In this document: positions 24,229 through 43,183 of the stretch, piece after piece
Position numbering within the stretch: position 1 is the stretch's first letter
Layout of the letters: each line of letters begins with the position of its first letter
IMG/VR virus record: IMGVR_UViG_3300038438_000005
DNA length: 49,546 bases
Strand: one strand, 5' to 3'
From: a virus
Notes under the pieces: model-generated
Databases searched by the model: none
Seen by the model: the letters and a program-made list of their open reading frames with translations, nothing else
Told to the model about the DNA's origin: nothing
Position numbers and translations under genes: made by a program

Positions 24229-24260
24229 TATCTGAAGCGGTAAAACCGCAATATGGCGTC

Positions 24261-24289
24261 AATATGCCGGAATCAAGTTAACACGTCAA
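24261..24289 (-). promoter_or_regulatory. Candidate late promoter (PR'-like)
   Basis: On the minus strand, TTGACG (24289-24284), a 17-nt spacer, then CATATT (24266-24261). It heads a 480-nt non-coding leader before the holin gene. Confidence 0.35.
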
Positions 24290-25373: not shown

Positions 25374-25729
25374 GCCGCCTCCCTCATCTCAAGGCAACCA
25401 TCAATGTAGGCGTGGCCGGCGATGATGTACTCACGAACCTTGAGCCGGGTCTCGTTAACCCGCTTGCCCACTTCGGCCATAGTCATATCCAGGCCGCGAT
25501 AGTACACGGTGATGCATTCTGCCATCTTGGGCCAGCGCCGAGCCATGATTGCCACCATCCGGTCAATCATCATGGCCTCTTCATCGGTGATGCAGGCGGC
25601 AGGCAGGCAGTCCATCTGCTCAACGTTGTCACGCATCAGGACGTAGGAGGGAGAGGTGCAGCGTGGAACGCCCACTTGTTGGCGGCTCCAGCGGCCCCAT
25701 TGGGTCAGAAGCTCTTCTGCGTCTCTCAT
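25370..25729 (-). CDS. Late-gene antiterminator, Q-like (putative)
   Basis: 119 aa. The N-terminal LTQWGRWSRQ motif and the position upstream of a promoter-plus-terminator late leader resemble the small Q-type antiterminator family. Confidence 0.5.
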   Translation of the reverse strand: MRDAEELLTQWGRWSRQQVGVPRCTSPSYVLMRDNVEQMDCLPAACITDEEAMMIDRMVAIMARRWPKMAECITVYYRGLDMTMAEVGKRVNETRLKVREYIIAGHAYIDGCLEMREAA

Positions 25730-26865
25730 GCTGCACCTGCCTTCAACATATCCGAGTTGATCGTCAGACGGCCCACTTCGCCGTAGCTCTTGTGATAGGT
25801 GATGACCTTGGCATCACGGCCACTGATCCATCCGCCGCGGCTTGCGTAGGCGTCTGGAGCCGCCAGAGTGCGGTGCTGCTCGACGATCATCAGGTTGTTT
25901 TCCTTGACGTCGACGTGATGTAGGTGTCCCAGGTGCGCATAGCTGTGCTTGGTGCGGCCGAAGACGTCGCGGAACTTGGCCACGAACACATCCGCCACAG
26001 CGGTAGGCTTCTTCTTGTGACCGTGGTGGAAGAACAGGCTGGTCTGGCCGTGCTCCACGCAGTAGTACGGGTCGGGGCTGCGGTCTACGGTAATGCGTGG
26101 CTCGTTCTCGTAAATGGCGGAGAACCATTCGCGCAACCATATGGAACTGGCCGTGTCGTGGTTGCCCTCGGCCATCAGCACATGAACCTTCTGATGCTTG
26201 GTCAGCAGCATGTCGACGACGCGGCGGGTTACCCTGATCGCCACGCGCACCAGCTTCTGAAACCGAGTGTCCGCGTCAAGCAGGTGCTTGCTGGCCGGCG
26301 TTACGGCATCGAGGCCGTCCCAATGAAGGTAATCCCCGAGCTGTGCGAACACGCCTATCTCGGCATCCGGGGCCATGCGGATTGCCTCGGCGAACCAAGC
26401 AACAAGCTGGTGCTCGGCAATGCTCAGGTCGTAATCAGCGCCAGTTTCTTCATGCCAGGACAGCAGGCCCAGGTGGTAGTCGGTCACAACGTAGCAATTC
26501 AGCAGGTCAGTGTTGCAAGAGGTCGGCGCCGGGGAGAAGGCCATGCGGGGAAGATCCTCGCCCATGGCTGCAATGGCAGCCTCCATGATTTCCCGCTGGC
26601 GCTGTTGGTCCGTCGTCGTCTTCACCCACTGAAGAACGGGAGCCTTACCCCCTTCTTTGTACAAGCTGGACGTGCCCTTGAGCTTAAATCCGTCCGGCAC
26701 GATATGGGTCATGTCGTGCTCTGGGCTCCAGCCCTTGCGGACAAGATTTGACTTTCTGGTCCACATATTCCGCTCATGCATGCCGAAGTGCTCTGCGGCC
26801 TGGGCGACGGTCATGGTCTTGAGAGCTTCAATGATCTGCTCGTCTGTTGCTTTGGCTGCGGTCAT
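25726..26865 (-). CDS. HTH plus metallophosphoesterase-like protein
   Basis: It has an N-terminal HTH-like segment (MTVAQAAEHFGMHERNMWTRK). It also has calcineurin-type motifs GDYLHWD, AEGNHD and HLGHLHH. Confidence 0.55.
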   Translation of the reverse strand: MTAAKATDEQIIEALKTMTVAQAAEHFGMHERNMWTRKSNLVRKGWSPEHDMTHIVPDGFKLKGTSSLYKEGGKAPVLQWVKTTTDQQRQREIMEAAIAAMGEDLPRMAFSPAPTSCNTDLLNCYVVTDYHLGLLSWHEETGADYDLSIAEHQLVAWFAEAIRMAPDAEIGVFAQLGDYLHWDGLDAVTPASKHLLDADTRFQKLVRVAIRVTRRVVDMLLTKHQKVHVLMAEGNHDTASSIWLREWFSAIYENEPRITVDRSPDPYYCVEHGQTSLFFHHGHKKKPTAVADVFVAKFRDVFGRTKHSYAHLGHLHHVDVKENNLMIVEQHRTLAAPDAYASRGGWISGRDAKVITYHKSYGEVGRLTINSDMLKAGAA

Positions 26866-27140
26866 TGGGCTTCTCCGGCGAGGGCTTCAGCTTTCAGGGC
26901 GGCGTATGCAACACAGTCTTCAGCGGAATCGGCGTGGTAGGCCGGGTTCTGCCACTGGCGCACGTCTTTGAGAATTTGTAGCAACAACCATCCTTCCGCC
27001 TCGGTCAGCTTCTGGCCGGTGATGGTGTTGAAGGCCGACACGGTGGTCGCCATGCTGCGCTCGCCCTCTGGCTTGTCGTACTGCTTGCCGCGCTCCAGCA
27101 TCAGCGCCTGGGCTTGTCCGAGGAATTCGTGAGCTTTCAT
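26862..27140 (-). CDS. Hypothetical conserved phage protein
   Basis: 92 aa, within the Nin-region gene string. Confidence 0.5.
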   Translation of the reverse strand: MKAHEFLGQAQALMLERGKQYDKPEGERSMATTVSAFNTITGQKLTEAEGWLLLQILKDVRQWQNPAYHADSAEDCVAYAALKAEALAGEAQ

Positions 27141-27331
27141 GCGGCCACCTTCTGGTTGTTCATATGTTCAACGCACGCCGCCTTGGCTTTGTCCTGGTCC
27201 CTGCCGGAATGAATGATCTTCCCCTTCGGGCACCGGCAGACGTAGCCGAAACCAGACTCAAGCGCGTACCGGCTGAGCAGATAGCCCTCTTCTGAGGACA
27301 TGCAGTTCTTGCTGATGGCTTTCCAGTTCAT
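27137..27331 (-). CDS. Hypothetical small protein
   Basis: 64 aa, coupled to both neighbours. Confidence 0.45.
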   Translation of the reverse strand: MNWKAISKNCMSSEEGYLLSRYALESGFGYVCRCPKGKIIHSGRDQDKAKAACVEHMNNQKVAA

Positions 27332-27924
27332 GCTGCCTGCCCCTTCTTGAGTTCTCTGGTCTTTGCCCGGTAGGTGGCCTTGATGGCCTTGATCTCATCC
27401 ACGGTGTACTTGCGAACGCTCTGGTCGGATTCCAGGGCGTCGACGGCCTCCTGGCCAATGCGCGCGATCAGGCCGATCCGGTAGTCCACGGCGTTGCCAG
27501 ACAGGAACCGGTTGTCCTGCTTGCTTTGTGCGTGGCAGTTGCGCTCATCAAAGCGCAGGTGCGGCGCGGAACCGACGCTGCGGTAATGACCTGCATCTAC
27601 CGCGTTGCCGCTCCAATCCAATGGCTTGCCGCTGGATATGCAGAGGTGGCCGGCGGCCTGGTCCCGGGTGCGGATGTACTCGTTGAACGCCTGCTGGGCC
27701 TCACGGATGTGATCGCCGCGGGTCTTCAGCGCCTCCTTGCGCACCTTGATATCCCGGCGCCCGGCCTGGGCCAGAGACTTCTTCTCCTTGGCCTTCTGCA
27801 CCTCTACAGTGGCCAGCGCACACTTAGGGCTGCACACCGCCTGACCGAGGCGCTGCGGGACGAATGAGGCCCTGCATGCTGGGTTCTTGCAGGTCTTGGG
27901 CTTGGGTTGTTTGGCGGCGAGCAT
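27328..27924 (-). CDS. ninG: NinG/Rap-like recombination endonuclease
   Basis: It has an N-terminal Cys cluster (CKNPACRASF...CSPKC) and the conserved core DAGHYRSVGSAPHLRFDERNCHAQSKQDN. Confidence 0.75.
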   Translation of the reverse strand: MLAAKQPKPKTCKNPACRASFVPQRLGQAVCSPKCALATVEVQKAKEKKSLAQAGRRDIKVRKEALKTRGDHIREAQQAFNEYIRTRDQAAGHLCISSGKPLDWSGNAVDAGHYRSVGSAPHLRFDERNCHAQSKQDNRFLSGNAVDYRIGLIARIGQEAVDALESDQSVRKYTVDEIKAIKATYRAKTRELKKGQAA

Positions 27925-28082
27925 CAGATATCCTCCCCGGCGAAATAACCCATGAGGAAGGTCGCCCCGGACACCAGGAACACCACAGCGCCGTGTGCGT
28001 GCTCGGTCGTCTGGCTGTAGGCGGTAGATGCGATAACCAACATCAGGCCAGCGATCAGCTTGAAGGTCTTGGAGGTATTCAT
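27924..28082 (-). CDS. Small two-helix membrane protein, 52 aa (below the ORF-track cutoff)
   Basis: The product is MNTSKTFKLIAGLMLVIASTAYSQTTEHAHGAVVFLVSGATFLMGYFAGEDI. It has an ATGA overlap with the NinB-like stop and a TGATG overlap with the NinG start. Confidence 0.5.
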   Translation of the reverse strand: MNTSKTFKLIAGLMLVIASTAYSQTTEHAHGAVVFLVSGATFLMGYFAGEDI

Positions 28083-28537
28083 GCCGCCTCCCCCATGTTG
28101 CAACGCATCTTCATGTACTCGCTGTCCTCGGGATGTGGCAGGTAGATCCCGTGTTCGGCGGCCCAGGCGTCAATGCAGGTCATAAACGAGTGCATGGCGC
28201 CCTTGTCCAGGTCGCTGGTGTGCTTGAGTTCGTAGCGCTCGGTGACTTCCCCGGTCTTGAGGTTGATGTCGCGGATCACCTCCTCGCCCAGAAAGGTCAG
28301 CTTCAGGTTTCGCTTCATGTTCGGCATATCCATCGGCGCACCGGTGGCGAACGTGGTCTTGCCCATGGACACGAAGAACTGGGCCGCGCACTCGCACCAC
28401 TTGTGGAACAAGGCGTTCTGAGGAAGGCTCCGGCTGGCCCCGGTGATAGCCACGTTGCAGGGAAAGCCCTTCTTGCGGATGGCGGCTTGCAGGGTGGAAA
28501 GCTCAGCCAGGGAGTTGAGGCGTATCTTCTCGCTCAT
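28079..28537 (-). CDS. ninB: NinB-like recombination protein
   Basis: It carries the SRSLPQNALFHKWC motif typical of NinB/Orf-family proteins. 152 aa. Confidence 0.65.
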   Translation of the reverse strand: MSEKIRLNSLAELSTLQAAIRKKGFPCNVAITGASRSLPQNALFHKWCECAAQFFVSMGKTTFATGAPMDMPNMKRNLKLTFLGEEVIRDINLKTGEVTERYELKHTSDLDKGAMHSFMTCIDAWAAEHGIYLPHPEDSEYMKMRCNMGEAA

Positions 28538-29112
28538 GACTGCTCTCCCTGGCCCAGGGCGGCGCCGATCTGGTCAGCCTTTTCACGCAGACGAATTGCC
28601 CAGTGGGTTGCTGACGTGGTTCCTGCTTCGACTTCGCGGCAGATCCAGCTGGAAGCCTTTCGCAGCTCAAGAGCTGTATCGCTCACCAGCTTGCGCAGCG
28701 CCTCGGCCTCTTGCGTCCAGTCGAGCCAAGCGTCGAGGTCGTAGTCGCCCTTCACGCCGGCGCGCAGACGTTCGTTCTCAGCCTTCAGCTCAGCATTCAC
28801 CTGCTCGTAGGCTTCGTAGCCGGTGCGTAGGCCGGCTACTTCGGCTCTGGCTTTCTCCGCCTGACTCCGGAATGAATTGCGCTCGCGGGTGAGCTTCCCC
28901 ATGTCGGCACCCATCGCCTTGCAACTACCGCGCAAGCTTTCGTTCTCGGCGATCAGGAGCAATACCTCCTCAGGTCCAGCAGCATCATGAAATGCATCAT
29001 CAGCAGCGGTTTGCTCATCAGCCAGATCAGCGTTGCACTCATCGGCGTCGTATTCGTTGCGTGCGATGATTGCAGCCTCGGCAAGCCGCTTCAGTTCGGT
29101 GTAGTCGGTCAT
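28534..29112 (-). CDS. Ead/Ea22-like coiled-coil protein
   Basis: The start is set at the ATGA overlap (29112). The N-terminus MTDYTELKRLAEAA and the segment LLLIAENESLR parallel 46453-46782. Confidence 0.55.
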   Translation of the reverse strand: MTDYTELKRLAEAAIIARNEYDADECNADLADEQTAADDAFHDAAGPEEVLLLIAENESLRGSCKAMGADMGKLTRERNSFRSQAEKARAEVAGLRTGYEAYEQVNAELKAENERLRAGVKGDYDLDAWLDWTQEAEALRKLVSDTALELRKASSWICREVEAGTTSATHWAIRLREKADQIGAALGQGEQS

Positions 29113-29288
29113 GTCCGCTGCTCCAGTGCTGCCCGGTGAATCCACTCAGCCCATGCGTGTTGGGTTTCTTGCTCTACGTAAAATCCACCCGGGAGCCTGT
29201 CGAGACACATACCCTGTTCGGCAGCGGACTTTTGGAACCACTCGTTTTCTGCCGCGAAGTCCGGCTCTACGATTTTTTTTCTGGACAT
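29109..29288 (-). CDS. Hypothetical 59-aa protein
   Basis: GGAGGG lies upstream, and the start is coupled to the DnaC-like stop (TGATG). Confidence 0.45.
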   Translation of the reverse strand: MSRKKIVEPDFAAENEWFQKSAAEQGMCLDRLPGGFYVEQETQHAWAEWIHRAALEQRT

Positions 29289-30106
29289 CAGAAGCCCTCC
29301 TTGCCGCGCTGCGATTCCCACTCAAACGGAATGACGATCACCCCGCCCTCCCGAAGCCTGTCTGCGCAACGCTCGCCGATAGCGCTGGCCAGGGCCTTCG
29401 CGTCGAGGTTGGAGACGATGACGGTGGGCCGCAGCTCTTCGTAGCGGCCGTTGATGATGGCGAACAGCGTGGTCAGCTCGAAGTCGCTGGGCTTCTCCTT
29501 GCTCACGCCGATTTCGTCGAGGATCAGAAGCGATGGGCTGATCAGGCTCGCCAGGATCTTGCTTTCGCTTTGGTCAGTGGAGGAATCATTGAACGTCGCC
29601 TTGATGGCCTGGAGCACTGAGCCGACAGTGCGATACACAGCCGTAGCGCTCGACGTGGCCATGATTTGGTTGGCGATGGCGACCGACAGGTGCGTCTTTC
29701 CGGTGCCGGGCTTGCCCAGCAGCAGTAGGCAGCGGCCGGCGGCGGCGATCTGCTTGAACTCGGCGGCATACCGGATGCAGGTGTTCAGGGCCTTCTGCTG
29801 CTCGGGGGTCTCATGGATGTACCCAGCGAAGGTCTTGCCAGCGAAACGCTTGGGGATCAGCGCTGCGCCCAGCTTCTCGGCCATCCGCATACGCAGGGCC
29901 AGGGCTTCCTGGGCTTCGGAGCGGGCGGCCTCTTCCTCACGGCGGATACGGCTGCACTCTGGGCACCCGGTCTTGAACTCCTTGCCGAAAATAACGCTGA
30001 CCTGTTGCGGGAACTGGCCGTGGTCTTCGCATACCCCGGTGGTGCGCTGTGGCTCAGGGGTAGCGCTTGGCATCGAAACGACTTTTTCAGAACGCATAGG
30101 TGCCAT
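29288..30106 (-). CDS. DnaC/IstB-like AAA+ helicase loader
   Basis: Walker A LLGKPGTGKTHL and Walker B LLILDEIG, with an N-terminal Cys pair (CPEC). The start is uncertain (30106 or 30097). Confidence 0.8.
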   Translation of the reverse strand: MAPMRSEKVVSMPSATPEPQRTTGVCEDHGQFPQQVSVIFGKEFKTGCPECSRIRREEEAARSEAQEALALRMRMAEKLGAALIPKRFAGKTFAGYIHETPEQQKALNTCIRYAAEFKQIAAAGRCLLLLGKPGTGKTHLSVAIANQIMATSSATAVYRTVGSVLQAIKATFNDSSTDQSESKILASLISPSLLILDEIGVSKEKPSDFELTTLFAIINGRYEELRPTVIVSNLDAKALASAIGERCADRLREGGVIVIPFEWESQRGKEGF

Positions 30107-30956
30107 CCTCCCGCTGGATCAGGCCGGCGGTGTAGTCGCGCTCAGCAAAGCCGGTGTGGCGAGATGACACCTCACGTTTCACGAACGGCCGGACGTTACT
30201 GGCCCGGTTCTTGTCGTCTTTCACCCACTTCACGAGCAGGGATACCCATTTGGTTTGGGTTTGCAGAAGACCGGTTGTTTCGTGGTGAGCGGTGAAAGGG
30301 GCCACGGCCTCCTTGGTGAACAGGTCAGTCGAGACGCCGAAGTGGATGCAGTAGGTCTTCAGCAGATTGGCGTCAGGCATCCAATCCAGTGTCATCTCGA
30401 CTGGAGCCTTTGGGTCAACAGGCGGCTCGTCATCTTCCAGGGGGAGGTCTTCAAGATCACCGAAGCCTTCGAAGCCCGAGCCCTGAATTTCTTCACCCGC
30501 GTTGTGAGAGTGGTGTTGATCCCTTCCATTCCCTTCCCCTTCCCTTCCGGGGGTGAGGACTCGACTACCACTCGACGAATCCTCGTCGAGTACTCGGCTA
30601 CCACTCGGCGAACTTTCGTCAGGGCCTTCGATAAATGCCGGGTATTTGAAGGTGCGCTTGTCGATTTTCTGGTGCCGCCAACCGCGCACGTGCAAGTAGG
30701 TTTTTCCATCGGCTGAGTAGAGAGCAATCAGGTTGGATGACTTCAGTTCGCCCAGCAGGCCATCAACCGATTCAACGGTTATGTCGTCGCCAGGGAACAC
30801 GAGGGCCTTAATGGTCCGCGGTGACATCGGGTGATTTCCACCGTCGTCACAGAAGTTCCAGATGCCGATGAATAGGAGGCGAGCCAGCGGCGTGCAGGAC
30901 ATCACCTGCTCACTCGACCAGAACTCGGGTTTGACTGTTCGGATGCGAGCCATCAT
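30087..30956 (-). CDS. Replication initiator / replisome organiser
   Basis: GGAGGC lies upstream and the ATG overlaps the upstream stop (ATGA). The N-terminus is MMARIRTVKPEFWSSEQV. The middle of the gene contains a tandem 33-bp repeat. Confidence 0.65.
   Translation of the reverse strand: MMARIRTVKPEFWSSEQVMSCTPLARLLFIGIWNFCDDGGNHPMSPRTIKALVFPGDDITVESVDGLLGELKSSNLIALYSADGKTYLHVRGWRHQKIDKRTFKYPAFIEGPDESSPSGSRVLDEDSSSGSRVLTPGREGEGNGRDQHHSHNAGEEIQGSGFEGFGDLEDLPLEDDEPPVDPKAPVEMTLDWMPDANLLKTYCIHFGVSTDLFTKEAVAPFTAHHETTGLLQTQTKWVSLLVKWVKDDKNRASNVRPFVKREVSSRHTGFAERDYTAGLIQREDGTYAF
30555..30620. repeat. Two tandem 33-bp iteron-like repeats inside the initiator gene (candidate ori)
   Basis: GAGGACTCGACTACCACTCGACGAATCCTCGTC is followed directly by GAGTACTCGGCTACCACTCGGCGAACTTTCGTC. 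They are identical at 27 of 33 positions. Confidence 0.55.
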
Positions 30957-31690
30957 TGGGCCTCCAGTTTGTACTGAGCCCACAGACCGGCAACCCAGTT
31001 GACGCCCTTGGGGGTGAATTTGGATTGGTTGTAGGCATGGCCGCTGTCGCTGGTACCGGCGCGCACTTCAAAACGCCCTGCGTCGATGTGGGGCTGGTAG
31101 GCCTGCCACTCACCGCCCATTCGGTACATGATTTTTTTGTCTAAGAGGAATTCGCGGAATCGTGACTCATTGGCCTTTAGCAACTTGGCGGTCTGGCGGA
31201 AGCCTTTCAGTCCAGTTGATTCGACGTAACGCTCTACGAAGGCGATCTTAGGCGCAGCCTCAATGAGGGCCTGATTAGCCTGCTGCTGAAGTTCGAACTG
31301 CTCGGCCCAGGCACGAGCCGCTGCTGCCGGATTGGAGAAGTCGGGGAGCGTGGCGACGACGCGACCGCCCTCCAGTTCGCGCCAGCGCTTGATGACCGCC
31401 ATTCGCATGGACGCGCTGTAACCGGTCAGGAGGCACTCAGTGTGCTCGCGGTCGAGGTTGAAGCACGGCAATGAGCGCCCGGTACTGTCCAAGTAGCTGC
31501 CCCCAAAAATGGGGTCAGTGATTCCGAGGTCGGAAAGCATGTTGCGGATGTCACGCATGACATGGTCGTGGCGCTTGCCGGTCAATTCGGAGATTTCGCG
31601 GGAGGACATCGTGCGCGCCACGTTTTCGGATATAGCAAAACGTGGCGCCGAACTGATGGGGGTATTGATCGTTTCGGTTTGATGGTGCAT
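30953..31690 (-). CDS. Rha-family N-terminal domain plus KilA-C/antirepressor-like C-terminal domain
   Basis: GGAGC lies 6 nt before the ATG at 31690. The N-terminal part SSREISELTGKRHDHVMRDIRNM resembles Rha. The C-terminal part (FSNPAAAARAWAEQ...) resembles phage antirepressor C-terminal domains. Confidence 0.6.
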   Translation of the reverse strand: MHHQTETINTPISSAPRFAISENVARTMSSREISELTGKRHDHVMRDIRNMLSDLGITDPIFGGSYLDSTGRSLPCFNLDREHTECLLTGYSASMRMAVIKRWRELEGGRVVATLPDFSNPAAAARAWAEQFELQQQANQALIEAAPKIAFVERYVESTGLKGFRQTAKLLKANESRFREFLLDKKIMYRMGGEWQAYQPHIDAGRFEVRAGTSDSGHAYNQSKFTPKGVNWVAGLWAQYKLEAQ

Positions 31691-31716
31691 GATTTGCTCC
31701 ACAAGCGTTTTAAGAG

Positions 31717-31743
31717 AGCCGGGTCACTACCCCGGCTTTTTTT
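31717..31743 (+). terminator. Intrinsic-terminator-shaped hairpin oriented against the early operon
   Basis: On the plus strand the sequence reads AGCCGGG-8 nt-CCCGGCT followed by TTTTTT. It lies 27 nt upstream of the antirepressor-like start codon. Confidence 0.45.
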
Positions 31744-31772
31744 CGTCCTGAATTTGGCAGAGGCCCTCTGGA

Positions 31773-31985
31773 TTACCCTGAAGAGTCCCTGCCAGAGGCC
31801 CTCATTGGGGTCACCAACTGAAGGACCTTGGCCTTCCGCCTCCCAACCTCAGAAAGCGCGCCACTAGCGATTGCTGTTTCCATCATCGCGTTTATGGCCT
31901 GGCTGAAAGTCCAGCCGTTCTCGCGCATTAACCCCTCAACTGCTTGCCGCGTTTGAGGCGGCAACTTTTCAAGCTCAACGGTCAT
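31773..31985 (-). CDS. Hypothetical 70-aa early protein
   Basis: GGAGGG lies 4 nt before the ATG at 31985. The longer 127-aa extension in the track has no SD. Confidence 0.45.
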   Translation of the reverse strand: MTVELEKLPPQTRQAVEGLMRENGWTFSQAINAMMETAIASGALSEVGRRKAKVLQLVTPMRASGRDSSG

Positions 31986-32004
31986 GTGGCCCTCCAAAGG
32001 GGCT

Positions 32005-32205
32005 TCAACCCGCGATATCTTCTTGTTTGTCCTGCATGAGCTCTTGGATGACGCCATTGGCAACCGCCCACTCGATGACTTCATAGAGGTAGGTCGCGTG
32101 CTGCATGCGGGTTTTCTCTGCGGCCTTACGCAGGATCCGATCAAGAACTGGTTCAAAACGAACCTTCACCGGAATGGCGCGCTTTTGATTGGGGTCCATG
32201 TACAT
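32005..32205 (-). CDS. Ribbon-helix-helix-like small regulator
   Basis: AGGAG lies 8 nt before the ATG at 32205. The product MYMDPNQKRAIPVKVRFEPVLDRILRKAAEK fits a beta-strand plus two-helix RHH layout. Confidence 0.45.
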   Translation of the reverse strand: MYMDPNQKRAIPVKVRFEPVLDRILRKAAEKTRMQHATYLYEVIEWAVANGVIQELMQDKQEDIAG

Positions 32206-32233
32206 ACTTCGATGCTCCTGGCTGATGAATGGG

Positions 32234-32440
32234 TTATGCAGCGATTGGGTAAAGATCTGGGCGCAACTCATGGCGAGGAACGCCGGTAGCGTTCTCAATC
32301 CGAAGTGCCTGACGTGCGGGAACACCCCTGGCCTTCCAGTAGGAGACCGCCATAGGAGTTACTCCCAGGAGCAAGGCAAGGGCTTTGCCGGATCCGGCAG
32401 CCAAAATTGCGCGTTCTAGAGGTGTTGGTTTCATAAACAT
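32234..32440 (-). CDS. Cro-like HTH regulator
   Basis: It is divergent from the repressor gene. The HTH is GSGKALALLLGVTPMAVSYWKARG. The start is either 32440 or 32434. Confidence 0.65.
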   Translation of the reverse strand: MFMKPTPLERAILAAGSGKALALLLGVTPMAVSYWKARGVPARQALRIENATGVPRHELRPDLYPIAA

Positions 32441-32517
32441 TCCGCCGTCGGCGAGTAAACATAACTCAACGATACGTTTATTTAATAAACATAGCAACAT
32501 GAGTAAACTTTCTGTTT
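32441..32517. promoter_or_regulatory. Divergent immunity control region with TAAACA-type operators
   Basis: A 15-bp palindrome GTTTATTTAATAAAC lies at 32476-32490. Additional half-sites are GTAAACAT (32456), GTAAAC (32503) and TGTTTAT (32513). Confidence 0.55.
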
Positions 32518-33255
32518 ATGAAAATCGAACATTCAGGCGACCGCCTCAGGCAATTCACTGCCCCTAGAAGCCTCACGCCGACCTGGCTTGCGGATAAATT
32601 TGGGGTGTCCACTCAATCGGTGAACAACTGGTTCAGCCGTGGCGTACCTAAGAAAGATCTCTATCGGGTTAGCCAGGAATTGGGCATTCGCTTTGAATGG
32701 CTTGATAAGGGCGAGGGCCTTCCTGTAATGGAAGGACTGGGAGATTCTAGGGATAGAGATGAAGCGGGCGAGTTGCCAGGCATTGAGGCTCTGGATGAGG
32801 ACGAGCCCCTAAGGCCCGACGAGGTTTGGCTGCCCTACCTGGAGGAGGTAGAACTAGACGCCGGTCCTGGTATGTTTGCGGTTGAAGAGAGCCCCAGCGC
32901 AAAGCTGCGCTTCTTTAAGCAGGACTTGCGCCGCAATGGCGTCCAATACCACAACGCCAAATGCGTATCGGTTAACGGAAATAGCATGTTTCCGGTTTTA
33001 CGCGATGGCGCCACTGTCGGTGTGAACACTGCCAAGAACTCTCTGAGAGATGTTGTCGATGGTGAGATGTACGCCATCAACCATAACGGTCAGTTGCGCG
33101 TGAAACAGGTGTACCGACTTCCTACCGGGCTTAGGCTGAGGAGCTATAACCGCGAAGAGTTCCCTGACGAGGACTACACCTTTGCCGAAATCCAAGATCA
33201 ACAGATATCAATAATCGGACACGTTTTCTGGTGGGCCATGTTCTCTAGACATTGA
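32518..33255 (+). CDS. CI-type repressor (HTH plus S24 LexA-like autopeptidase)
   Basis: It has an N-terminal HTH (TWLADKFGVSTQSVNNWFSRG), a long acidic linker, and a C-terminal domain with GNSMFP (Ser) and LRVKQ (Lys). Confidence 0.85.
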   Translation: MKIEHSGDRLRQFTAPRSLTPTWLADKFGVSTQSVNNWFSRGVPKKDLYRVSQELGIRFEWLDKGEGLPVMEGLGDSRDRDEAGELPGIEALDEDEPLRPDEVWLPYLEEVELDAGPGMFAVEESPSAKLRFFKQDLRRNGVQYHNAKCVSVNGNSMFPVLRDGATVGVNTAKNSLRDVVDGEMYAINHNGQLRVKQVYRLPTGLRLRSYNREEFPDEDYTFAEIQDQQISIIGHVFWWAMFSRH

Positions 33256-33272
33256 TCGCCGCCCACCTCTAA

Positions 33273-33297
33273 GCCCGGCCAAGCGCCGGGCTTTTTT
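33273..33297 (+). terminator. Intrinsic terminator after the repressor gene
   Basis: GCCCGGC-CAAGC-GCCGGGC followed by TTTTTT. Confidence 0.7.
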
Positions 33298-33350
33298 GTG
33301 CCTGCGATTTGACGCCCCCCCCTCCTTTGGCCTGCCGTCCTGGCGGCCTC

Positions 33351-33403
33351 AATAAACAAAATAAACATTTTGTGTTGACGCGTTTATAAACGTGTTGTTT
33401 ACT
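33351..33403 (+). promoter_or_regulatory. PL-like early-left promoter with repressor operator motifs
   Basis: TTGACG (33375-33380), a 17-nt spacer, then TTTACT (33398-33403). The palindrome GTTTATAAAC (33382-33391) sits in the spacer, and AATAAAC and ATAAACAT repeats lie at 33351-33368. Confidence 0.5.
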
Positions 33404-33489
33404 AGCTCACATCGCAGCGACTCAAGAGGGACTGCGAAGGGCCTCACCGCCCGCCGCAACACAGGCAGCGATGCCAGGCAGACGCCGAA

Positions 33490-33501
33490 CGCTCTTTAAC
33501 A
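33490..33501 (+). promoter_or_regulatory. boxA-like antitermination element
   Basis: CGCTCTTTAACA lies about 90 nt downstream of the -10 element. It matches the rrn boxA UGCUCUUUAACA at 11 of 12 positions and starts like the lambdoid CGCUCUU. Confidence 0.5.
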
Positions 33502-33980
33502 GCCAGCGCAACAAACAACAGACCGCATTGCCTCTACCGGCGACCGGCGAGCAGACAGGCCCGAAAGCCTGCCAACGACAGGGAAAACCTTGTACGGCTG
33601 CTCGATGGTGAAACGCCAGAACCGAGTGAGTGACCCGGTAAGCAATGCGCCCCGCGAATCCCAGCGGCAGAAGGGAGAGACACTGAATTCAAGAATTAGC
33701 GGGCCCGATAGCTTCGGCTGGGACCGCCGGACCTCATGCACCCTGCCCCACTCAATCAGGGCATTCAGAGCTGTAGCGTGCATGTTGTAAGGACCTGTGA
33801 TCCACGGCGAACAGATGCTGTTTGACGCTGTGAGTAGGAAGCTCGAAGCCCGCACCATGACAAACCGCCGACCTGCAATCAGCAGCGGGATACGCGGCGC
33901 CGCCCTAGCGAAGAGGGAGTCACCGCTGACGCAACAAACCCAGGCCGTCGCCAGTAGCGGGCCTGGATTCCACAGATTCC

Positions 33981-34020
33981 TGATGCCGCTTCTATGAGGC
34001 GGCATTGGAAATCAACGGAG
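33981..34020 (+). repeat. 40-bp hairpin-plus-SD cassette, copy 1
   Basis: TGATGCCGCTTCTATGAGGCGGCATTGGAAATCAACGGAG matches 34563-34602 at 39 of 40 positions. It ends 9 nt before the ATG at 34030. Confidence 0.8.
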
Positions 34021-34029
34021 GAAGCAGAA

Positions 34030-34236
34030 ATGGCTCAGTTCAACATTGATAACAACAGAACGCTCAACAAGCGCGTTGAGTGGCTAGCGATTCCGGACGA
34101 CGGAGAGTGCGCTGACGATGTTCTCAGCAAGGTAAAGCAGGCGGCAATCGACAAGTTCGGCGCCTGCGTCTACTTCAACCACTGGGAGCGCATCGTGGCG
34201 AGTAATGGCCACGTCACGGTGCGCATGGAGGCATGA
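34030..34236 (+). CDS. Small early protein, 68 aa
   Basis: GGAGGAAG lies upstream of the ATG. The track extension MRRHWKSTE... is the repeat cassette read through. Confidence 0.5.
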   Translation: MAQFNIDNNRTLNKRVEWLAIPDDGECADDVLSKVKQAAIDKFGACVYFNHWERIVASNGHVTVRMEA

Positions 34237-34308
34237 CAGGCAGCATCACTTCTGCACCTTGGCGACAGGGTGCAGCGGGATGACAACCGAGCCCTGGAGG
34301 GCAATGCA

Positions 34309-34545
34309 ATGTTCAATTTCACAACCCAAGAAGTTAACGGGCACACCATTGCTGAGCTCGGCGACTTCAGAATTCGCTTTTTCGCAAATGATCGGAACAC
34401 ACGCATCACCTCAAGCATCGGCCTGAACCATGAGGATGAGGAATTCCGCGCCTCAGGGACTTTGTTCTTTCACTACAACGCAATTGAGCAGGGGCATGGC
34501 AACTGCAATACAGGCGGACACCAGTTCGATCACATGGCGTCCTGA
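34309..34545 (+). CDS. Small early protein, 78 aa
   Basis: GGAGGG lies 7 nt before the ATG at 34309. GC is lower than the surroundings. Confidence 0.5.
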   Translation: MFNFTTQEVNGHTIAELGDFRIRFFANDRNTRITSSIGLNHEDEEFRASGTLFFHYNAIEQGHGNCNTGGHQFDHMAS

Positions 34546-34562
34546 TCAGCCGAGCGATTTAC

Positions 34563-34602
34563 TGATGCCGCCTCTATGAGGCGGCATTGGAAATCAACGG
34601 AG
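34563..34602 (+). repeat. 40-bp hairpin-plus-SD cassette, copy 2
   Basis: It is the same cassette as 33981-34020. The hairpin arms TGCCGCCTC/GAGGCGGCA are perfect here. It ends 9 nt before the ATG at 34612. Confidence 0.8.
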
Positions 34603-34611
34603 ATCACCAAA

Positions 34612-34779
34612 ATGAGCAACGAACGAAAAGTCGTCGAACTGCCAGACGGTTTCAACGGCGCAACCATGGCGTTTTATGCCGACCCAGTCGAAGTCGATGG
34701 GCAACTGATCAAGCTGCAGTGTGCGATTCCTGGGAAAGAGCATCTCATCCGCTGGGCCCGCCAGTCCGACCTGACCTGA
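34612..34779 (+). CDS. Small early protein, 55 aa
   Basis: It is preceded by the cassette-supplied GGAG. Confidence 0.45.
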   Translation: MSNERKVVELPDGFNGATMAFYADPVEVDGQLIKLQCAIPGKEHLIRWARQSDLT

Positions 34780-34858
34780 ACAGCCAGCGCCAACGTGAGC
34801 CTCACGCTAACTGCCCGAGTGCCTCTCACTGAGTAGCCGCGATGGCCATAGAGTGAGA

Positions 34859-35018
34859 CCGCATCGGAGTGTGCAATCGCAGGATGCAACCTTGGAGGCA
34901 GCGGCATTGACTAGGCGGGTTGCTCCGCTGACTAGATGCCGGCGATCAACTGATCACTGTTTCGATAAATCCCCCTGAGGTGGCGGTTCGACTCCGCCGA
35001 TTGCACACCCCGATGCGG
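34859..35018 (+). ncRNA. Candidate structured RNA A: 21-bp terminal helix enclosing a tRNA-like module
   Basis: 34859-34879 pairs with 34998-35018, with one A.C mismatch at 34868/35009. A T arm GGCGG-TTCGACT-CCGCC (34982-34998) abuts a 7-bp acceptor-like helix TGCAATC/GATTGCA. There is a D-like TGC-10 nt-GCA and a long arm at 34903-34940. No ORF with an SD is present. Confidence 0.45.
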
Positions 35019-35202
35019 ATGACCACTACACACCGCGCAAAGCGGCCCCCTGCATCGAACCTCTGACGACCTACCCCGATCCGTAGCCAGTAGCTGGACC
35101 GGGCCCACAGATGGCGACCTGCTGTTTCAGGCCTGCCATCTGGTTTCACAAATGCCTCTAGTCCCCCTGGAGGTATTTGGAAGCCAACAGACAGAGGCAG
35201 TT

Positions 35203-35421
35203 ATGAGCATTGGAACCGAATTCAAAAGGCATATACGGAACGGCTCTCGGCGCCCGGCAGGGGTCAAAGAGGACTCAGTGGTACACGCCAAAGGCGGCGA
35301 CCAAGAAATTATCCAGCGCGCTGACCGCGTTGACTGGCGGAATGTCTCTTCTTGGGCGTACACGGATAAGCCGGCAACCCCCATCGTGGATTACGCGCAT
35401 TGCGATGGCGAGTGCGATTAA
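35203..35421 (+). CDS. Small early protein, 72 aa, with a basic N-terminus
   Basis: GAGG lies 7 nt before the ATG. The N-terminus is MSIGTEFKRHIRNGSRRPAG. It lies between RNA elements A and B. Confidence 0.45.
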   Translation: MSIGTEFKRHIRNGSRRPAGVKEDSVVHAKGGDQEIIQRADRVDWRNVSSWAYTDKPATPIVDYAHCDGECD

Positions 35422-35494
35422 AACCTCTCCTTGCACGTCCGCCAGACGAAAATTGGCCCGATCCTTTCCTTGGGGAGACTCGTATAGGGAGAGG

Positions 35495-35578
35495 CTGCAT
35501 CGGAGTGTGATCTGAGTACCGCCAGCCAGCGCGAGAGCAAAGGCAGACAAACGTCATGCAGATCACACCCCGATGCAG
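35495..35578 (+). ncRNA. Candidate structured RNA B: same terminal helix motif, 44-nt interior
   Basis: 35495-35514 pairs with 35559-35578, with the same A.C mismatch. It shares the core GCATCGGAGTGTG/CACACCCCGATGC with element A. The inner helix differs compensatorily (ATCTG/CAGAT here, CAATCG/CGATTG in A). Confidence 0.45.
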
Positions 35579-35995
35579 AAGCGGCGTGGAAAGACTGGCT
35601 TGATGTTAAGCCTCGCAGACACGCTACAAGCGGCATGACTCGATGGGGATCGCTCCTTGGGGATTGGAACCAAGGTGGGTAGGTGCACACCATCCTTTTT
35701 TGGTGGAAACAGGCCCCTGGATTCGAACGTACAGCAGCCTTGCCGAGCAATCGGGCGATATCGAACGCGCTGCGGCCATTACACAGATCATGCACGGTCC
35801 ATAGCCGGGGTAGCGTCCGGCCTTCTGCATCAACCCCGGGGCCCACTGCACATCCCGCCGGGAGGGAGCCGAAAGGTAGCAGCAGCCCGCACATGCGGAT
35901 TTTCTTTCCAGCAAGCAACGGGGGATACAGCCATGAAATAGCTCAGTGAAGTAGATACCCCGCGCCACGTAGGGAGGTCTATGTGTCGCACCGAA

Positions 35996-36021
35996 AGCCC
36001 GGGCAATGTTCGGGCTTTTTT
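35996..36021 (+). terminator. Intrinsic terminator at the end of the structured leader domain
   Basis: AGCCCG-9 nt-CGGGCT followed by TTTTTT, 40 nt before the next gene. Confidence 0.65.
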
Positions 36022-36060
36022 ACGCCCGAAAACCGGGTGAGCCAACGAATGGAGAGATTC

Positions 36061-36294
36061 ATGAGCAAAGACAACAGTGAGCCTGCGTTCCCGGCTCCAG
36101 AAGCGTCGATGGAGCATTTCGGAACGGCCGATGGGTACACAGGAGCGAGTCTGCGCGACTACTTCGCGGCTCACGCAATGCCTGGCCTTATGGGTAGAGC
36201 GTGGGCACCACTGGAAGGGAGCGAGCTTATAAATGAGTGGGCTAAAGCTGCTTACGCCGTGGCAGACGCCATGCTCGCCGCCCGTTCCGCCTAA
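36061..36294 (+). CDS. Hypothetical early protein, 77 aa
   Basis: GGAGAG lies 5 nt before the ATG at 36061. Confidence 0.55.
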   Translation: MSKDNSEPAFPAPEASMEHFGTADGYTGASLRDYFAAHAMPGLMGRAWAPLEGSELINEWAKAAYAVADAMLAARSA

Positions 36295-36315
36295 CCCCAA
36301 ACACTGGAGGTCGCC

Positions 36316-36615
36316 ATGAGCGCAACAGTTGAAGTGAGTTGCGCATGGTGCGCCGAGACGTTCACGGCACGAACTGCCGACAGAAAGCGAGGATGGGGCA
36401 GGTTTTGCTCAAAGTCGTGCAAGTCCAGTAAGCAGAAGTACGGCGCTACCAAAGCATTTTGGGATAAGGCCAACCCCAACAATAAGCGCAGCAACATCGC
36501 CAAGTACGGTGAGCGCCTGTTGCGCGACAGCGGCGGATGCATCGACGACGACGTTGATATTTCCGATATGGACTGGGGCGCCAGCGATGGCGGCGGTTAC
36601 GAATCAATCAGGTAA
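36316..36615 (+). CDS. Cys-rich small protein (zinc-ribbon-like)
   Basis: It carries the CAWC...CSKSC pairs. 99 aa. Confidence 0.55.
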   Translation: MSATVEVSCAWCAETFTARTADRKRGWGRFCSKSCKSSKQKYGATKAFWDKANPNNKRSNIAKYGERLLRDSGGCIDDDVDISDMDWGASDGGGYESIR

Positions 36616-36629
36616 GACTGGAGGCGACC

Positions 36630-36905
36630 ATGACTTACGAAGTAATTGTTGAAGGGTACGTCCTCCAGGTGGAGGTGACGTCTTGCGAGGAAGCTCTGCC
36701 AGCCGAGTACCGGAATGGCAGCCGGGAACTGACGTTCAACGTCTTGTCCGGGACCATGTACGACGCCGACCGCGTCCCGATGGACGTGTGCCAACTTGAG
36801 CTGGCCGTGATTGCCGAGAGCAAGGAATACGTCCCGATGATCGAGAAGGAGCTGTGGTTCGAGATTGACGCCCGCAGGCTCAGGAAAGGGAGGTTGGCAG
36901 CATGA
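36630..36905 (+). CDS. Hypothetical early protein
   Basis: 91 aa. GGAGG lies upstream, and its stop is ATGA-coupled to the next gene. Confidence 0.55.
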   Translation: MTYEVIVEGYVLQVEVTSCEEALPAEYRNGSRELTFNVLSGTMYDADRVPMDVCQLELAVIAESKEYVPMIEKELWFEIDARRLRKGRLAA

Positions 36906-37162
36906 AAAGCTATCACCAGCGCGCCATTGAAATGATCCAGCAGCAGATCACGCAGATCTGCAAGTCATGCCGACCCGATGAAGACTTCTGCGAAGGCATG
37001 ATCCAGGCGAATGTCGGACAAGGCCACATCAGTACCGAGGAATCGGTGGAGCTGATGCAGCTTCTGGTCAACGCCGTATCGGCAAGGCGCCGGGAACTAC
37101 AGCAACAGAGCGCGGCCAAGCGGCTTGCAGACTACGAACTCCAATATGGGCGAGCGCTATGA
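36902..37162 (+). CDS. Hypothetical early protein
   Basis: 86 aa, in the ATGA-coupled chain. Confidence 0.55.
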   Translation: MKSYHQRAIEMIQQQITQICKSCRPDEDFCEGMIQANVGQGHISTEESVELMQLLVNAVSARRRELQQQSAAKRLADYELQYGRAL

Positions 37163-41454: not shown

Positions 41455-41811
41455 ATGGCAATGCATACGGAACTTGCGATCTACAAGGCTTCAATGGGGC
41501 TGCTGCACATGGCCACAACGATGACCCGGAACATCCCCCGCGACCTGAAGCAGTCACTCGGCAAGCGAGTGATCGACGAATGCATCGAAGTGCTGATGCT
41601 GATTGCCCGCGCCAATGCCACCCAGGACAAGCGGCCACACCTCACCCTGCTGGTCGAGAAGGTGCAGGTAGTCGAGTTCCTGATGCGGCTCTTCAAAGAC
41701 AACCGCTTTATCAGCATCCCGCAACACGCCCAGGCAATTGAGGTAACGGCCTCAATAGGCAAGCAAGCAAACGCCTGGAAACGCTCCACCCCCACCGCGC
41801 CCGCTACCTGA
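41455..41811 (+). CDS. avd: DGR accessory variability determinant (Avd, four-helix-bundle family)
   Basis: 118 aa, helical and basic. NIPRDLKQSLGKR and SIGKQANAWKR parallel the bAvd-type pattern. It sits between the targets and the TR, and GGAGAG lies upstream. Confidence 0.75.
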   Translation: MAMHTELAIYKASMGLLHMATTMTRNIPRDLKQSLGKRVIDECIEVLMLIARANATQDKRPHLTLLVEKVQVVEFLMRLFKDNRFISIPQHAQAIEVTASIGKQANAWKRSTPTAPAT

Positions 41812-41982
41812 AGGTTAAGGCTTTCTGGTCTGTGCGAATTGAATCTGGTCGTGCCGCTGACCTCTGGGTCACCGCCATGCGCACAAGAGATACCGCCGGT
41901 CTAAAGCGTCCGGGCAGGTCTTGCGCAGTTTCCTTGCTGATCGGCTTTGCCTTCGGCCTGGCGACGTAGATAGCACGATAGG

Positions 41983-42087
41983 TCGCAGCGCTCAGCCAAC
42001 AACGCATTCAACATGAACTTCGATGATGGCAATCAGAACAACAACGACAAGAACAACGAGCTCCGTGTCCGCCCCGTCCGCAGATTC
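41983..42087 (+). repeat. DGR template repeat (TR)
   Basis: It is rich in AAC codons (read in the VR frame: NNAFNMNFDDGNQNNNDKNNELRVRPVRRF). It is homologous to VR1 and VR2 and lies immediately 5' of, and overlapping, the RT frame. Confidence 0.9.
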
Positions 42088-43183
42088 GACTTTGGGTCCC
42101 TACCCGTTTCAGGATCTGGTCCAGGCCTATTACGACTGCCGGCGCACCAAGCGCAACAGCGACAGCGCGCTGGCTTTCGAGATCGACCTGGAGCGGAACC
42201 TGATCCAACTACACGACGACCTGGTCAGCGGCAATTACCGCCCAGGCCGATCCATTTGTTTCGTGGTCACCAGGCCGAAAGCCCGCGAAGTTTGGGCAGC
42301 AGCCTTTCGGGATCGCGTCGTCCACCACCTGATGTACAACCATGTGGCACCGCGCTTTTACGCCAGCTTCATAGCGGACAGTTGCGCATGCATTCCAGGT
42401 CGCGGCACGTTATACGCCGCCACACGGCTTGAGTCGAAGATACGCAGCGCCAGCGAGAACTGGTCGAAGCCGATCTTCTACCTGAAGTGCGACCTGGCCA
42501 ACTTCTTCGTAGCCATCGATAAGGCCGTGCTGCGAAAGCAACTGGAAGCCAGGATAACCGAACCCTGGTGGCTGGCCCTGGCTACGCAGATCCTCATGCA
42601 CGACCCGCGCGAGGATTACGAGACGCGCAGCCCGGCGCACCTGTTCAACCGGGTGCCGCAGCACAAGCGCCTGGTTGCGCAGCCCGCCCACCTCGGCCTG
42701 CCCATCGGTAACCTGTCGTCGCAGTTCTTCGCCAACGTCTACCTCGATGCCCTGGACCAGTTCGCCAAGCATCGCTTGGGCGCCAAGCACTACATCCGGT
42801 ATGTCGATGACTTTGTGTTCCTGCATGAGTCACCGCAACAGCTCAACCAGTGGCTGGCCGAGGTCGAAGCGTTTCTGCCCAGGCTGGGGGCCAAGCTGAA
42901 CCCCACCAAGACGGTCCTGCAGCCCGTGGATCGCGGCGTCGACTTCGTTGGTCACGTCATCAAGCCTTGGCGGCGAACCACCCGTAAGCGGTCGCTGGCA
43001 CAGGCATTGAAGCGAACGGCCGCAGCACCAGCCGAGGATCTGCGCGAGACGGCCAATAGCTACTTCGGCCTACTCAGTCAGGCCAGCCACAGCGACAAAG
43101 ACCGGGCCGCACTCGCCCGCGTCGTGCTGAAGCGCGGCAATAGCGTCAACGCCGCGCTGACGAAGACCTTCCAGAAGAAGTAA
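42023..43183 (+). CDS. DGR-type reverse transcriptase
   Basis: It has the YVDD catalytic motif (HYIRYVDDFVFL) and the DGR hallmark IGNLSSQ (the I/LGxxxSQ motif). It also has FRDRVVHH. The true start is uncertain: ATG 42023/42026 lie inside the TR, and the in-frame alternatives are GTG 42065 and TTG 42092. Confidence 0.85.
   Translation: MMAIRTTTTRTTSSVSAPSADSTLGPYPFQDLVQAYYDCRRTKRNSDSALAFEIDLERNLIQLHDDLVSGNYRPGRSICFVVTRPKAREVWAAAFRDRVVHHLMYNHVAPRFYASFIADSCACIPGRGTLYAATRLESKIRSASENWSKPIFYLKCDLANFFVAIDKAVLRKQLEARITEPWWLALATQILMHDPREDYETRSPAHLFNRVPQHKRLVAQPAHLGLPIGNLSSQFFANVYLDALDQFAKHRLGAKHYIRYVDDFVFLHESPQQLNQWLAEVEAFLPRLGAKLNPTKTVLQPVDRGVDFVGHVIKPWRRTTRKRSLAQALKRTAAAPAEDLRETANSYFGLLSQASHSDKDRAALARVVLKRGNSVNAALTKTFQKK

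Follow-up and report, generated by a model that had tools for sequence, protein, structure and literature searches.

The 49,546-nucleotide (nt) viral sequence IMGVR_UViG_3300038438_000005 of IMG/VR (hereafter the window, meaning this whole stretch) is best read as a lambda-like Pseudomonas (pro)phage, in which positions 33375-36021 form a long and largely untranslated leader to the early-left operon that is transcribed from the early-left promoter (PL). Near the head of this leader, a boxA is followed after about 20 nt by a structured RNA of about 130 nt and six helices, here called the core RNA, and directly thereafter by an H-type pseudoknot. The core is a real RNA that is read from the plus strand, and core and pseudoknot constitute a previously undescribed RNA that is absent from Rfam and from the literature that we searched. 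Loci of Pseudomonas (pro)phages that carry the core RNA number more than 110. boxA is the common denominator of the leaders, and the core is its commonest but non-obligatory partner. The arrangement makes the two a candidate signal for processive antitermination.

A boxA and a conserved structured RNA at the head of the leader

The boxA, CGCTCTTTAACA (CGCUCUUUAACA), had been called near-consensus in the initial annotation, which was made from the sequence alone. At 33491-33501 it agrees in every letter with GYTCTTTAANA, the consensus that Baniulyte et al. derived for gamma-proteobacteria (PMC5725501), and it is the sole match in the window when up to one mismatch is allowed. It lies about 80 nt past the promoter and is presumably a loading site for NusB and NusE. 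Its position is fixed in more than 100 related loci: an exact boxA stands at most 135 nt upstream of the core RNA in 92 of 112 distinct loci, one-mismatch variants do so in 17 more, and three loci have no recognisable variant. The exact motif had no match in the remaining 2.08 Mb of locus sequence, which served as background. In every inspected locus, an operator-flanked promoter is located 60-80 nt upstream of boxA. No second boxA was found near the early-right (PR) operon of the window, even with up to two mismatches. A candidate at 34777, a repeat of AACAGCCAGCGC, was rejected, as it misses the U-run and represents the conserved 5' edge of a scaffold element (see below).

The core RNA is closed by helix H1 (GCAUUGC/GCAAUGC) with H5 (ACCGG/CCGGU) stacked inside it, while H6 (GAGCAG/CUGCUC) surrounds the hairpins H2 and H3 and is followed by H4. 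The junctions GGCGACCGGCGA and GAACCGAGYGAAUGACC are invariant. In a plain MAFFT alignment of 91 representatives, no two of which are more than 93% identical, standard pairs occupy 88.7% of the cells, compared with 26-36% when the partners are slid by one to three columns. Compensatory changes occur in 19 of the 37 pairs, and the covariation score was matched by none of 500 shuffles. The U.G pairs are consistent with the plus strand only, and minimum free energy (MFE) folding of a single sequence independently recovers five of the six helices (H1, H2, H3, H4 and H6). Core lengths range from 107 to 131 nt across the loci and change by steps not divisible by three, and on either strand the share of the 109 distinct loci in which a given frame lacks stop codons does not exceed 32%. 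We read the core as a plus-strand RNA because of this covariation, the strand-specific U.G pairs, the length steps and the lack of a conserved frame; in the related loci, the helices show compensatory changes and codon-like conservation is missing. The leader of about 630 nt without genes that had been seen at first inspection is thus borne out.

A covariance model of the core detects exactly one copy in the window, with 145 bits. According to our cmscan analysis against Rfam 15, the only match in the whole window at gathering thresholds is RT-15, which lies outside the domain, and at E<=10 the region 32000-37000 gave only weak matches to the cI terminator, leaving the domain without a family match. 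Searches of the literature found no description of these RNAs. In the adjoining pseudoknot, stem a (CCGCG/AGCGG) pairs 33652-33656 with 33663-33667 and stem b (UCCC/GGGA) pairs 33659-33662 with 33673-33676, the latter alternating between UA (27 loci) and CG (20 loci).

Distribution of the core RNA and its linkage to boxA

A pattern of the invariant core nucleotides was found in at least 120 stretches of IMG/VR, six of which are chance matches. In blastn comparisons, conservation begins exactly at boxA, and the conserved DNA is mostly unannotated in many Pseudomonas phages. Carriers of the core region include phiPSA1, LESphi3, PS-1, Riah, phi2, PseuP_222 and PfDIW6, and in annotated records it is always found on the same strand as, and downstream of, the repressor gene. 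A pattern search of genome contigs (596 Gb) yielded eight real loci among the 120 matches listed, the only ones supported by the covariance model, and five of them are titled Pseudomonas. The pattern is too loose for 596 Gb, and nearly all of the 120 listed matches are chance hits in GC-rich genomes; the host range of the core rests on the eight genome loci together with the phage records.

The spacing between boxA and core falls into two classes. In class 1, which includes the window, boxA stands directly upstream at about -48 to -56, and in class 2 it stands at about -114 with a hairpin and a covarying pseudoknot in between. Side inspection of the class 2 loci (L006, L007, L020, L026, L036 and others) showed this insert of about 60 nt to consist of a hairpin and a covarying H-type pseudoknot, for example GCCCC...CACCUG...GGGGC...CAGGUG; these loci are without the post-core pseudoknot of class 1. 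Some loci carry a module of about 90 nt between boxA and core.

Promoter, operators and terminators

Of the 44 blastn records for the region, 40 are Pseudomonas phages. The repressor transcript is separated from PL by the terminator at 33271-33299, and past it the promoter was identified by reading the sequence (about 33376-33404); a strict-threshold promoter scan of 32000-37000 listed no sigma-70-like site. As in lambda, PL is preceded on the same strand by the repressor gene with its terminator. The half-site RTAAACR has 26 copies in the window against 9.0 expected, a number that was reached in no shuffle, with clusters of five at 33352-33402 (PL) and five at 32433-32519 (the cI/cro intergenic region). 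The promoter with operator motifs past the repressor terminator, as first annotated, is thereby supported. Related loci show near-consensus TTGACA...TATATT promoters with their own repeats in the equivalent place. A cI similar to that of the window was found in only 23 of 100 loci, as expected from different immunity types. Small GC-rich hairpins just upstream of boxA were seen in other inspected loci too, by eye and without statistics.

At its distal end, the domain is closed by a canonical intrinsic terminator (35995-36021), as initially annotated. It was missed by a simple scan and rests on the fold and on a dedicated terminator scan. It ends 40 nt before the next start codon (36061), where a closely spaced series of same-strand genes begins. 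Its type, GCCCG-N-CGGGCUUUUUUAC, recurs downstream of the leader in other loci. Of the 77 loci whose sequence extends at least 2.5 kb downstream, 42 possess a strong terminator on the sense strand within 5 kb, and the intrinsic terminators downstream total 66 in sense and 40 in antisense orientation. As a separate observation, the cI terminator (33271-33302) and the internal terminator (35995-36026) are 78% identical over 32 nt, trailing sequence included (repeat D2).

Coding potential and protein partners

About 70% of 33300-36060 falls outside the four small open reading frames (ORFs) of the leader. Two further ORFs were considered and rejected: the minus-strand ORF of 169 amino acids (aa) at 33496-34005, whose counterpart is annotated in PfDIW6, gave tblastn matches that change frame within a single locus, and the Arg-rich ORF of 46 aa at 33471-33611 is not conserved. 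In PfDIW6 the hypothetical coding sequence (CDS) gp38 (L001, 4007-4522) covers conserved non-coding RNA, and in Orimi01 the hypothetical CDS gp61 (L248, 2580-3053) covers conserved RNA and crosses an intrinsic terminator. Both annotations are probably errors and not genes.

The absence of a recognisable N protein noted at the outset was borne out by the domain searches. None of the ten ORFs after PL matches an antiterminator in Pfam or PHROG, and the first ORFs past the leader, compared over 103 distinct cases, have no Arg-rich, N-like protein in common. In agreement with this, N was reported to be absent from YA3, a lambdoid phage of Pseudomonas (PMC7326022). The first ORFs with a Shine-Dalgarno (SD) sequence past the leader are diverse in these 103 cases and encode LuxR-type, TerB-like, CsrA-like and XRE proteins and many of no assigned type. 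No shared downstream protein partner was found, the largest protein cluster comprising 42 of 120 loci. The unrelated downstream genes argue against a gene-specific riboswitch and against an analogue of N, and we posit that the core would act at the level of the operon rather than of the gene. Among the early genes, a CsrA/RsmA-like protein (MLILTRK...) is encoded first or early in 13 loci (L105, L119, L035, L008 and others), about 100-700 nt past the core.

Further RNAs and genes of the leader

Past the core, the domain is modular and consists of a chain of structured RNAs (Table 1). Module 2 occurs in about nine related loci, and nine sequences of 71-98% identity gave 53 predicted pairs in RNAalifold, 17 of them with compensatory changes, with indels that are not multiples of three. 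The hairpin that follows it has a similar copy at 35081-35102 and 47-nt matches in 11 further loci, and its type recurs widely.

The leader hairpins in front of the genes form a family with 59 sense and three antisense copies in 48 loci, in which the outer four base pairs (bp) and the inner stem both covary and CAACCGAG, an SD sequence and ATG always follow 3'. In most loci, such a hairpin lies 31-55 nt past the core. The second copy of the window has matches of 92-100% identity in 20 loci and of 82-86% in three more high-scoring segment pairs, with 22 loci in total. Apart from this, the region 33977-34033 around the first copy matches PP438408 and OP828577, phages of the cyanobacteria Leptolyngbya/Plectonema, at 84-85% over about 60 nt, which is odd given the distant hosts.

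The four small ORFs (55-78 aa) were all recovered, as were the hairpins 34823-34858, 35108-35142 and 35655-35677 of the initial annotation, which are all present in MFE folds. ORF1 is a real gene. ORF2, ORF3 and ORF4 match no family of PHROG or Pfam, and the fetched loci contain no homologue of them; the hairpin upstream of ORF4 resembles those before ORF1-3. The stretch 34780-35205 is much more stably folded than its shuffles (z = -5.0).

Elements A and B belong to a family of scaffolds with a common layout. The 5' half consists of AACARCCAGCGCC, hairpin Ha, UUAACUGCCCGA and hairpin Hb, and the 3' half of a stem of about 21 bp (GCAUCGGRGUGUGAUCUG/CAGAUCACACCCCGAUGC), GGAYGA, hairpin Hc and CCCCCUGCAUC. 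In element A, the 5' part reads AACAGCCAGCGCC, Ha (34794-34806), UAACUGCCCGA and Hb (34823-34858), the long stem pairs 34859-34884 with 34993-35018 and bears an insert of 108 nt with a T-arm-like end, GGCGGUUCGACUCCGCC, and the 3' part has GGAUGA before Hc. Element B has a 20-bp stem (35495-35514 with 35559-35578) and an insert of 44 nt, a type that recurs in L102, L109 and L121. Over 110 elements from 110 loci (among them L020, L025, L050, L094, L281 and L346), the inserts at the stem tip measure 44-179 nt and are of 107 distinct sequences in at least 45 clusters. Nine insert ends are T-loop-like compared with three in a reverse-complement control, and the insert of L094 also has a D-arm-like GCTCAATGGTAGAGC. 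ARAGORN at default settings found no tRNA or tmRNA, and tRNAs in the inserts were rejected, as relaxed settings gave only implausible intron-containing calls.

Scaffolds are widespread in IMG/VR contigs, mostly without the boxA/core module. We regard them as an independent family because the core lies upstream in only 22 of the 71 scaffolds with enough upstream sequence. At stem position 9 (34868 with 35009 and 35504 with 35569), 15 of 33 elements have an A.C mismatch and the rest a G-C pair; on the opposite strand this mismatch would be G.U, and strand or function is ambiguous in this respect. The flank upstream of the stem (CCCGAUGC-like) repeats the 3' arm, and CUGCAUC downstream repeats the 5' arm (34812-34818, 34859-34867, 35008-35018 and 35053-35061). 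These duplications make alternative pairings of an attenuator-like kind possible (1:2 and 3:4 versus 2:3), and no U-run is found past them. An interpretation of the scaffolds as transposons was rejected, as no target-site duplication stands beside the inverted repeats.

The piece after element B includes the hairpin at 35655-35677 and, at about 35679-35705, one that resembles a terminator. We read it as non-coding, since the comparison with Orimi01 shows a frame-shifting indel of 2 nt and a compensatory stem change in the latter hairpin. Further downstream, an RT-15 RNA (41795-41985, plus strand; Rfam, 180 bits, E = 6e-44) is directly followed 3' by a reverse transcriptase (RT) gene of 386 aa (42023-43183, plus strand; Pfam RVT_1), which in PADLOC is closest to generic RT and UG4-type DRT. 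A module of RT and non-coding RNA is thus carried within the early-left operon of the phage.

Table 1. Features of the early-left region and of related genes in the window.
Feature	Position	Strand	Basis and remarks
cro-like gene		-	divergent from repressor
cI-type repressor gene	32518-33255	+	Peptidase_S24 and CI-repressor helix-turn-helix domains
Intrinsic terminator of the cI-like repressor gene	33271-33299	+	9-bp stem, 7 GC pairs, T-run
PL-like promoter with left operator (OL)	33352-33405	+	TTGACG-17 nt-TTTACT, overlapped by five RTAAACR half-sites
Two small hairpins	33412-33452	+	UCGCAG...CUGCGA and GGGC...GCCC; read from the sequence
boxA	33490-33501	+	exact consensus
Core RNA	33522-33651	+	alignment covariation and covariance model
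H-type pseudoknot, directly 3' of core	33652-33676	+	89% paired, covarying stem b
Module 2, structured RNA	33696-33928 (~230 nt)	+	closed by UUAGCG/CGCUGA
Hairpin CCAGGCC-GUCGCCAGUAGCGG-GCCUGG	33939-33965	+	repeat D6; alignment columns 269-297 covary
Leader hairpin 1 (D1-type)	33975-34013	+	16 nt before the ORF1 start codon
ORF1, 68 aa	34030-34236	+	phrog_7788; homologues 53-57% identical in 7 loci
Leader hairpin 2 (D1-type)	34244-34282	+	CAUC-AC-U-UCUGCACCUUG-gcga-CAGGGUGCAGC-GGGAUG; before ORF2
ORF2, 78 aa	34309-34545	+	SD-preceded
Leader hairpin 3 (D1-type)	34557-34595	+	before ORF3; 95% identical to first copy
ORF3, 55 aa	34612-34779	+	
Scaffold element A	34777-35062	+	repeat I2
Stable hairpin CAGAUGGC...GCCAUCUG	35108-35142	+	region shared with PfDIW6 and L031
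ORF4, 72 aa	35203-35421	+	own hairpin (~35157-35185) and SD upstream
Scaffold element B	35433-35578	+	repeats I3, D3 and D7; flanks laid out as in A
Conserved non-coding piece after B	35579-35830	+	homologous to Orimi01 L248:2570-2815
Strong intrinsic terminator AAGCCCGGGCAATGTTCGGGCTTTTTT	35995-36021	+	MFE fold: 12-bp stem and U-run
Integrase	48231-49427		domain search

Proposed mechanism and alternative explanations

We posit that the head of the leader may constitute a protein-free, Nus-dependent antitermination module of the nut/rrn kind, which would protect the leader transcript and read through the terminator. Judging from the sequence features, we consider this proposal to be evenly balanced between holding and failing, and the link of the core RNA to terminator read-through is putative. 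The PL transcript presents, in this order, boxA, about 20 nt of spacer, core and pseudoknot, the further RNAs with the four hairpin-led genes, and the terminator. As on rrn and lambda nut, boxA would load the host factors NusB and NusE (S10) and with them NusA and NusG, probably also SuhB and S4, and the adjacent folded RNA may replace boxB and N, either by contacting RNA polymerase directly or by recruiting host factors. The resulting elongation complex would be resistant to termination specifically on transcripts initiated at PL, would shield a stretch of about 2.6 kb of RNA that is poorly translated and open to Rho, and would pass the terminator at 35995-36021 into the main body of the operon. 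The 21-bp stems of A and B are of the size recognised by RNase III and may free the variable inserts or define mRNA ends, and the hairpins before the ORFs may stabilise the processed mRNAs.

Both ingredients of this proposal have precedents. Untranslated RNA is shielded from Rho by boxA-bound Nus complexes (PMC12360218; PMC4807359), and the put RNA of phage HK022 illustrates that nascent phage RNA alone can render RNA polymerase resistant to termination (PMC9378689). The initial annotation had deduced processive antitermination from a boxA followed by a terminator. Of this deduction, the boxA and the internal terminator stand, and an RNA candidate adjacent to boxA has been added; the put-like form of the mechanism does not stand (see below).

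A number of observations weigh against the proposal. Complexes of the rrn type are efficient against Rho and weak against intrinsic terminators. The covariance model found no second core copy in the PR operon of the window, and a strong terminator downstream is present in only 55% of the loci. In the leader of MR15, a boxA-like CGCTCTTTACCA stands at the equivalent position and a different RNA replaces the core, which suggests that boxA may suffice and that the core may serve otherwise. Orimi01 has the same scaffold, post-B piece and terminator and lacks boxA and core, so that read-through there would take another route or be partial. Finally, boxA may act negatively, as at suhB (PMC5725501).

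An extended form of the antitermination proposal can be put forward tentatively, with somewhat more doubt than confidence. Here, lambda-like phages of Pseudomonas would use a hitherto unknown class of antiterminator, in which a host-type boxA and a 130-nt 'RNA N' in the role of the N protein assemble a Nus-dependent, termination-proof polymerase with no phage protein involved. The protected transcript would be an island of accessory RNAs, including the widespread 21-bp-stem cassette that would present dozens of unrelated small RNAs, some of them tRNA-like, at an early stage of infection.

The main rival explanation is that boxA alone provides an rrn-like, Nus-dependent shield against Rho and that the core is an independent non-coding RNA placed in the protected leader. 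The core, and likewise module 2 and the inserts, may then be trans-acting, host-takeover or anti-defence RNAs or sites for a host protein. This explanation owes its standing to MR15 and Orimi01, which show that the core is not obligatory, and it is consistent with the flexible spacing between boxA and core, which accommodates modules of 60 nt or about 90 nt, and with the gathering of unrelated RNAs in the leader (module 2 in about nine loci, at least 45 insert clusters, and the core above 22 of 71 scaffolds). We consider it less likely than the antitermination proposal. Against it, boxA is almost always accompanied by the core, which invariably forms the first or second module after it and precedes any gene; among loci with enough upstream sequence, the core is without a boxA-type sequence in only three of 112; and its sequence suggests no target or partner.

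It is improbable that the core gates early-left expression in the manner of a riboswitch or attenuator, by sensing a metabolite or protein. A fold of several helices whose junction nucleotides are invariant is typical of RNAs that bind ligands, and the position in the 5' leader would suit such a role; however, the core is followed by the pseudoknot, by RNA modules or by a generic leader hairpin instead of an expression platform in the form of a terminator or SD-sequestering helix, and the unrelated downstream genes, the tight linkage to boxA and the lack of an Rfam match speak against it as well. We give equally little credence to the alternative that PL transcription simply ends at 35995-36021 as a self-contained unit and that an unrecognised promoter drives the genes from 36061. 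The terminator is strong, it is also present in Orimi01 without boxA and core, and Pseudomonas promoters can match the Escherichia coli consensus poorly, but the gap measures only 40 nt, the scan of 32000-37000 listed no sigma-70-like site, and the same-strand genes are tightly packed. The independent downstream promoter that the initial annotation had named as a way to overturn the antitermination reading thus finds no promoter signal in its favour. That the non-coding parts encode missed proteins, either the 169-aa minus-strand or the 46-aa Arg-rich ORF, is scarcely credible in spite of the hypothetical proteins annotated on homologous DNA in PfDIW6 and Orimi01, given the indels that are not multiples of three, the lack of a widely open frame, the frame-switching tblastn matches, the compensatory helix substitutions, and an Orimi01 CDS that is frame-shifted relative to the window and crosses a terminator.

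Comparison with known systems

The layout resembles that of lambda nut, which is likewise a promoter-proximal RNA signal in a repressor-controlled early-left operon, with a boxA followed by structured RNA and with terminators downstream. The differences lie in the parts. The boxB of lambda is a short hairpin with a 5-bp stem and a GNRA-like pentaloop a few nucleotides past boxA. No boxB follows boxA here: in every class 1 locus the next 20-30 nt are rich in A and C and free of pairing, and the hairpin loops of the core are not conserved. In place of boxB stands the 130-nt RNA of six helices together with its pseudoknot. Lambda boxA is a shortened CGCUCUUA, whereas the boxA here is of the full rrn type. 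Lambda nut has a protein of the N family and two sites, nutL and nutR, while no such protein was found here and the single site has no nutR equivalent.

With the leaders of rrn (boxB-boxA-boxC; NusA/B/E/G, SuhB and S4) and of suhB, the element shares a consensus boxA. It also shares with rrn the position of boxA at the head of a long, structured, largely untranslated, Rho-exposed transcript, and the small hairpins seen by eye before boxA in the inspected loci may be a further resemblance. In the leaders studied here, structure is conserved in the core, the pseudoknot and module 2, and non-coding sequence in the scaffolds and the post-B piece. Unlike rrn, the element belongs to a phage and is under repressor control, and rrn is not known to have a counterpart of the conserved 130-nt RNA that follows boxA. 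A strong intrinsic terminator would moreover have to be passed here, which rrn complexes, as is generally known, handle poorly.

HK022 put resembles the element in that a lambdoid phage without N would use a nascent, promoter-proximal RNA as a cis-acting antiterminator. The put RNA acts by binding the beta' zinc-binding domain. It has about 70 nt and two stem-loops and is independent of Nus factors and boxA (PMC9378689). The core RNA has about 130 nt and six helices, a boxA is present, and it occurs as a single copy instead of putL and putR. The covariance model of the core gave no match at E<=1 in the immunity region of HK022 (24000-33000), a comparison made in one direction. The RNA-based put-like mechanism that had been considered at first was dropped on account of these differences in size and fold, the presence of boxA and the missing HK022 match. 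The near-constant boxA beside the core argues for Nus involvement, unlike in put.

RNase III hairpins such as the R sites of T7, the lambda N-leader and sib are like A and B in that they are imperfect stems between early-operon genes, those of A and B being of about 21 bp and conserved in sequence, and the leader hairpins before the ORFs are laid out like 5' stabilisers. Unlike known RNase III sites, A and B, as putative sites of this kind, have conserved flanks with three more hairpins, and they carry hypervariable inserts of 44-179 nt.

Irrespective of function, the leader adds new structured-RNA families, namely core and pseudoknot, module 2, the leader hairpins and the scaffold with its variable inserts, and 'hypothetical proteins' annotated over these regions, at least in PfDIW6 and Orimi01, are probably not genes. 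For the way in which the lambda-like phages of Pseudomonas get past their early-operon terminators, a boxA-tied RNA in more than 100 (pro)phages provides a candidate that can be mutated. If the proposal holds, the element could also be used in Pseudomonas engineering as a portable part for antitermination. Signals for processive antitermination are known as a kind from the early operons of phages, and this one is neither a nut nor a put site; if it acts as we posit, it would represent a third solution beside N/nut and put, in which host Nus factors are combined with an RNA that stands in for the protein.

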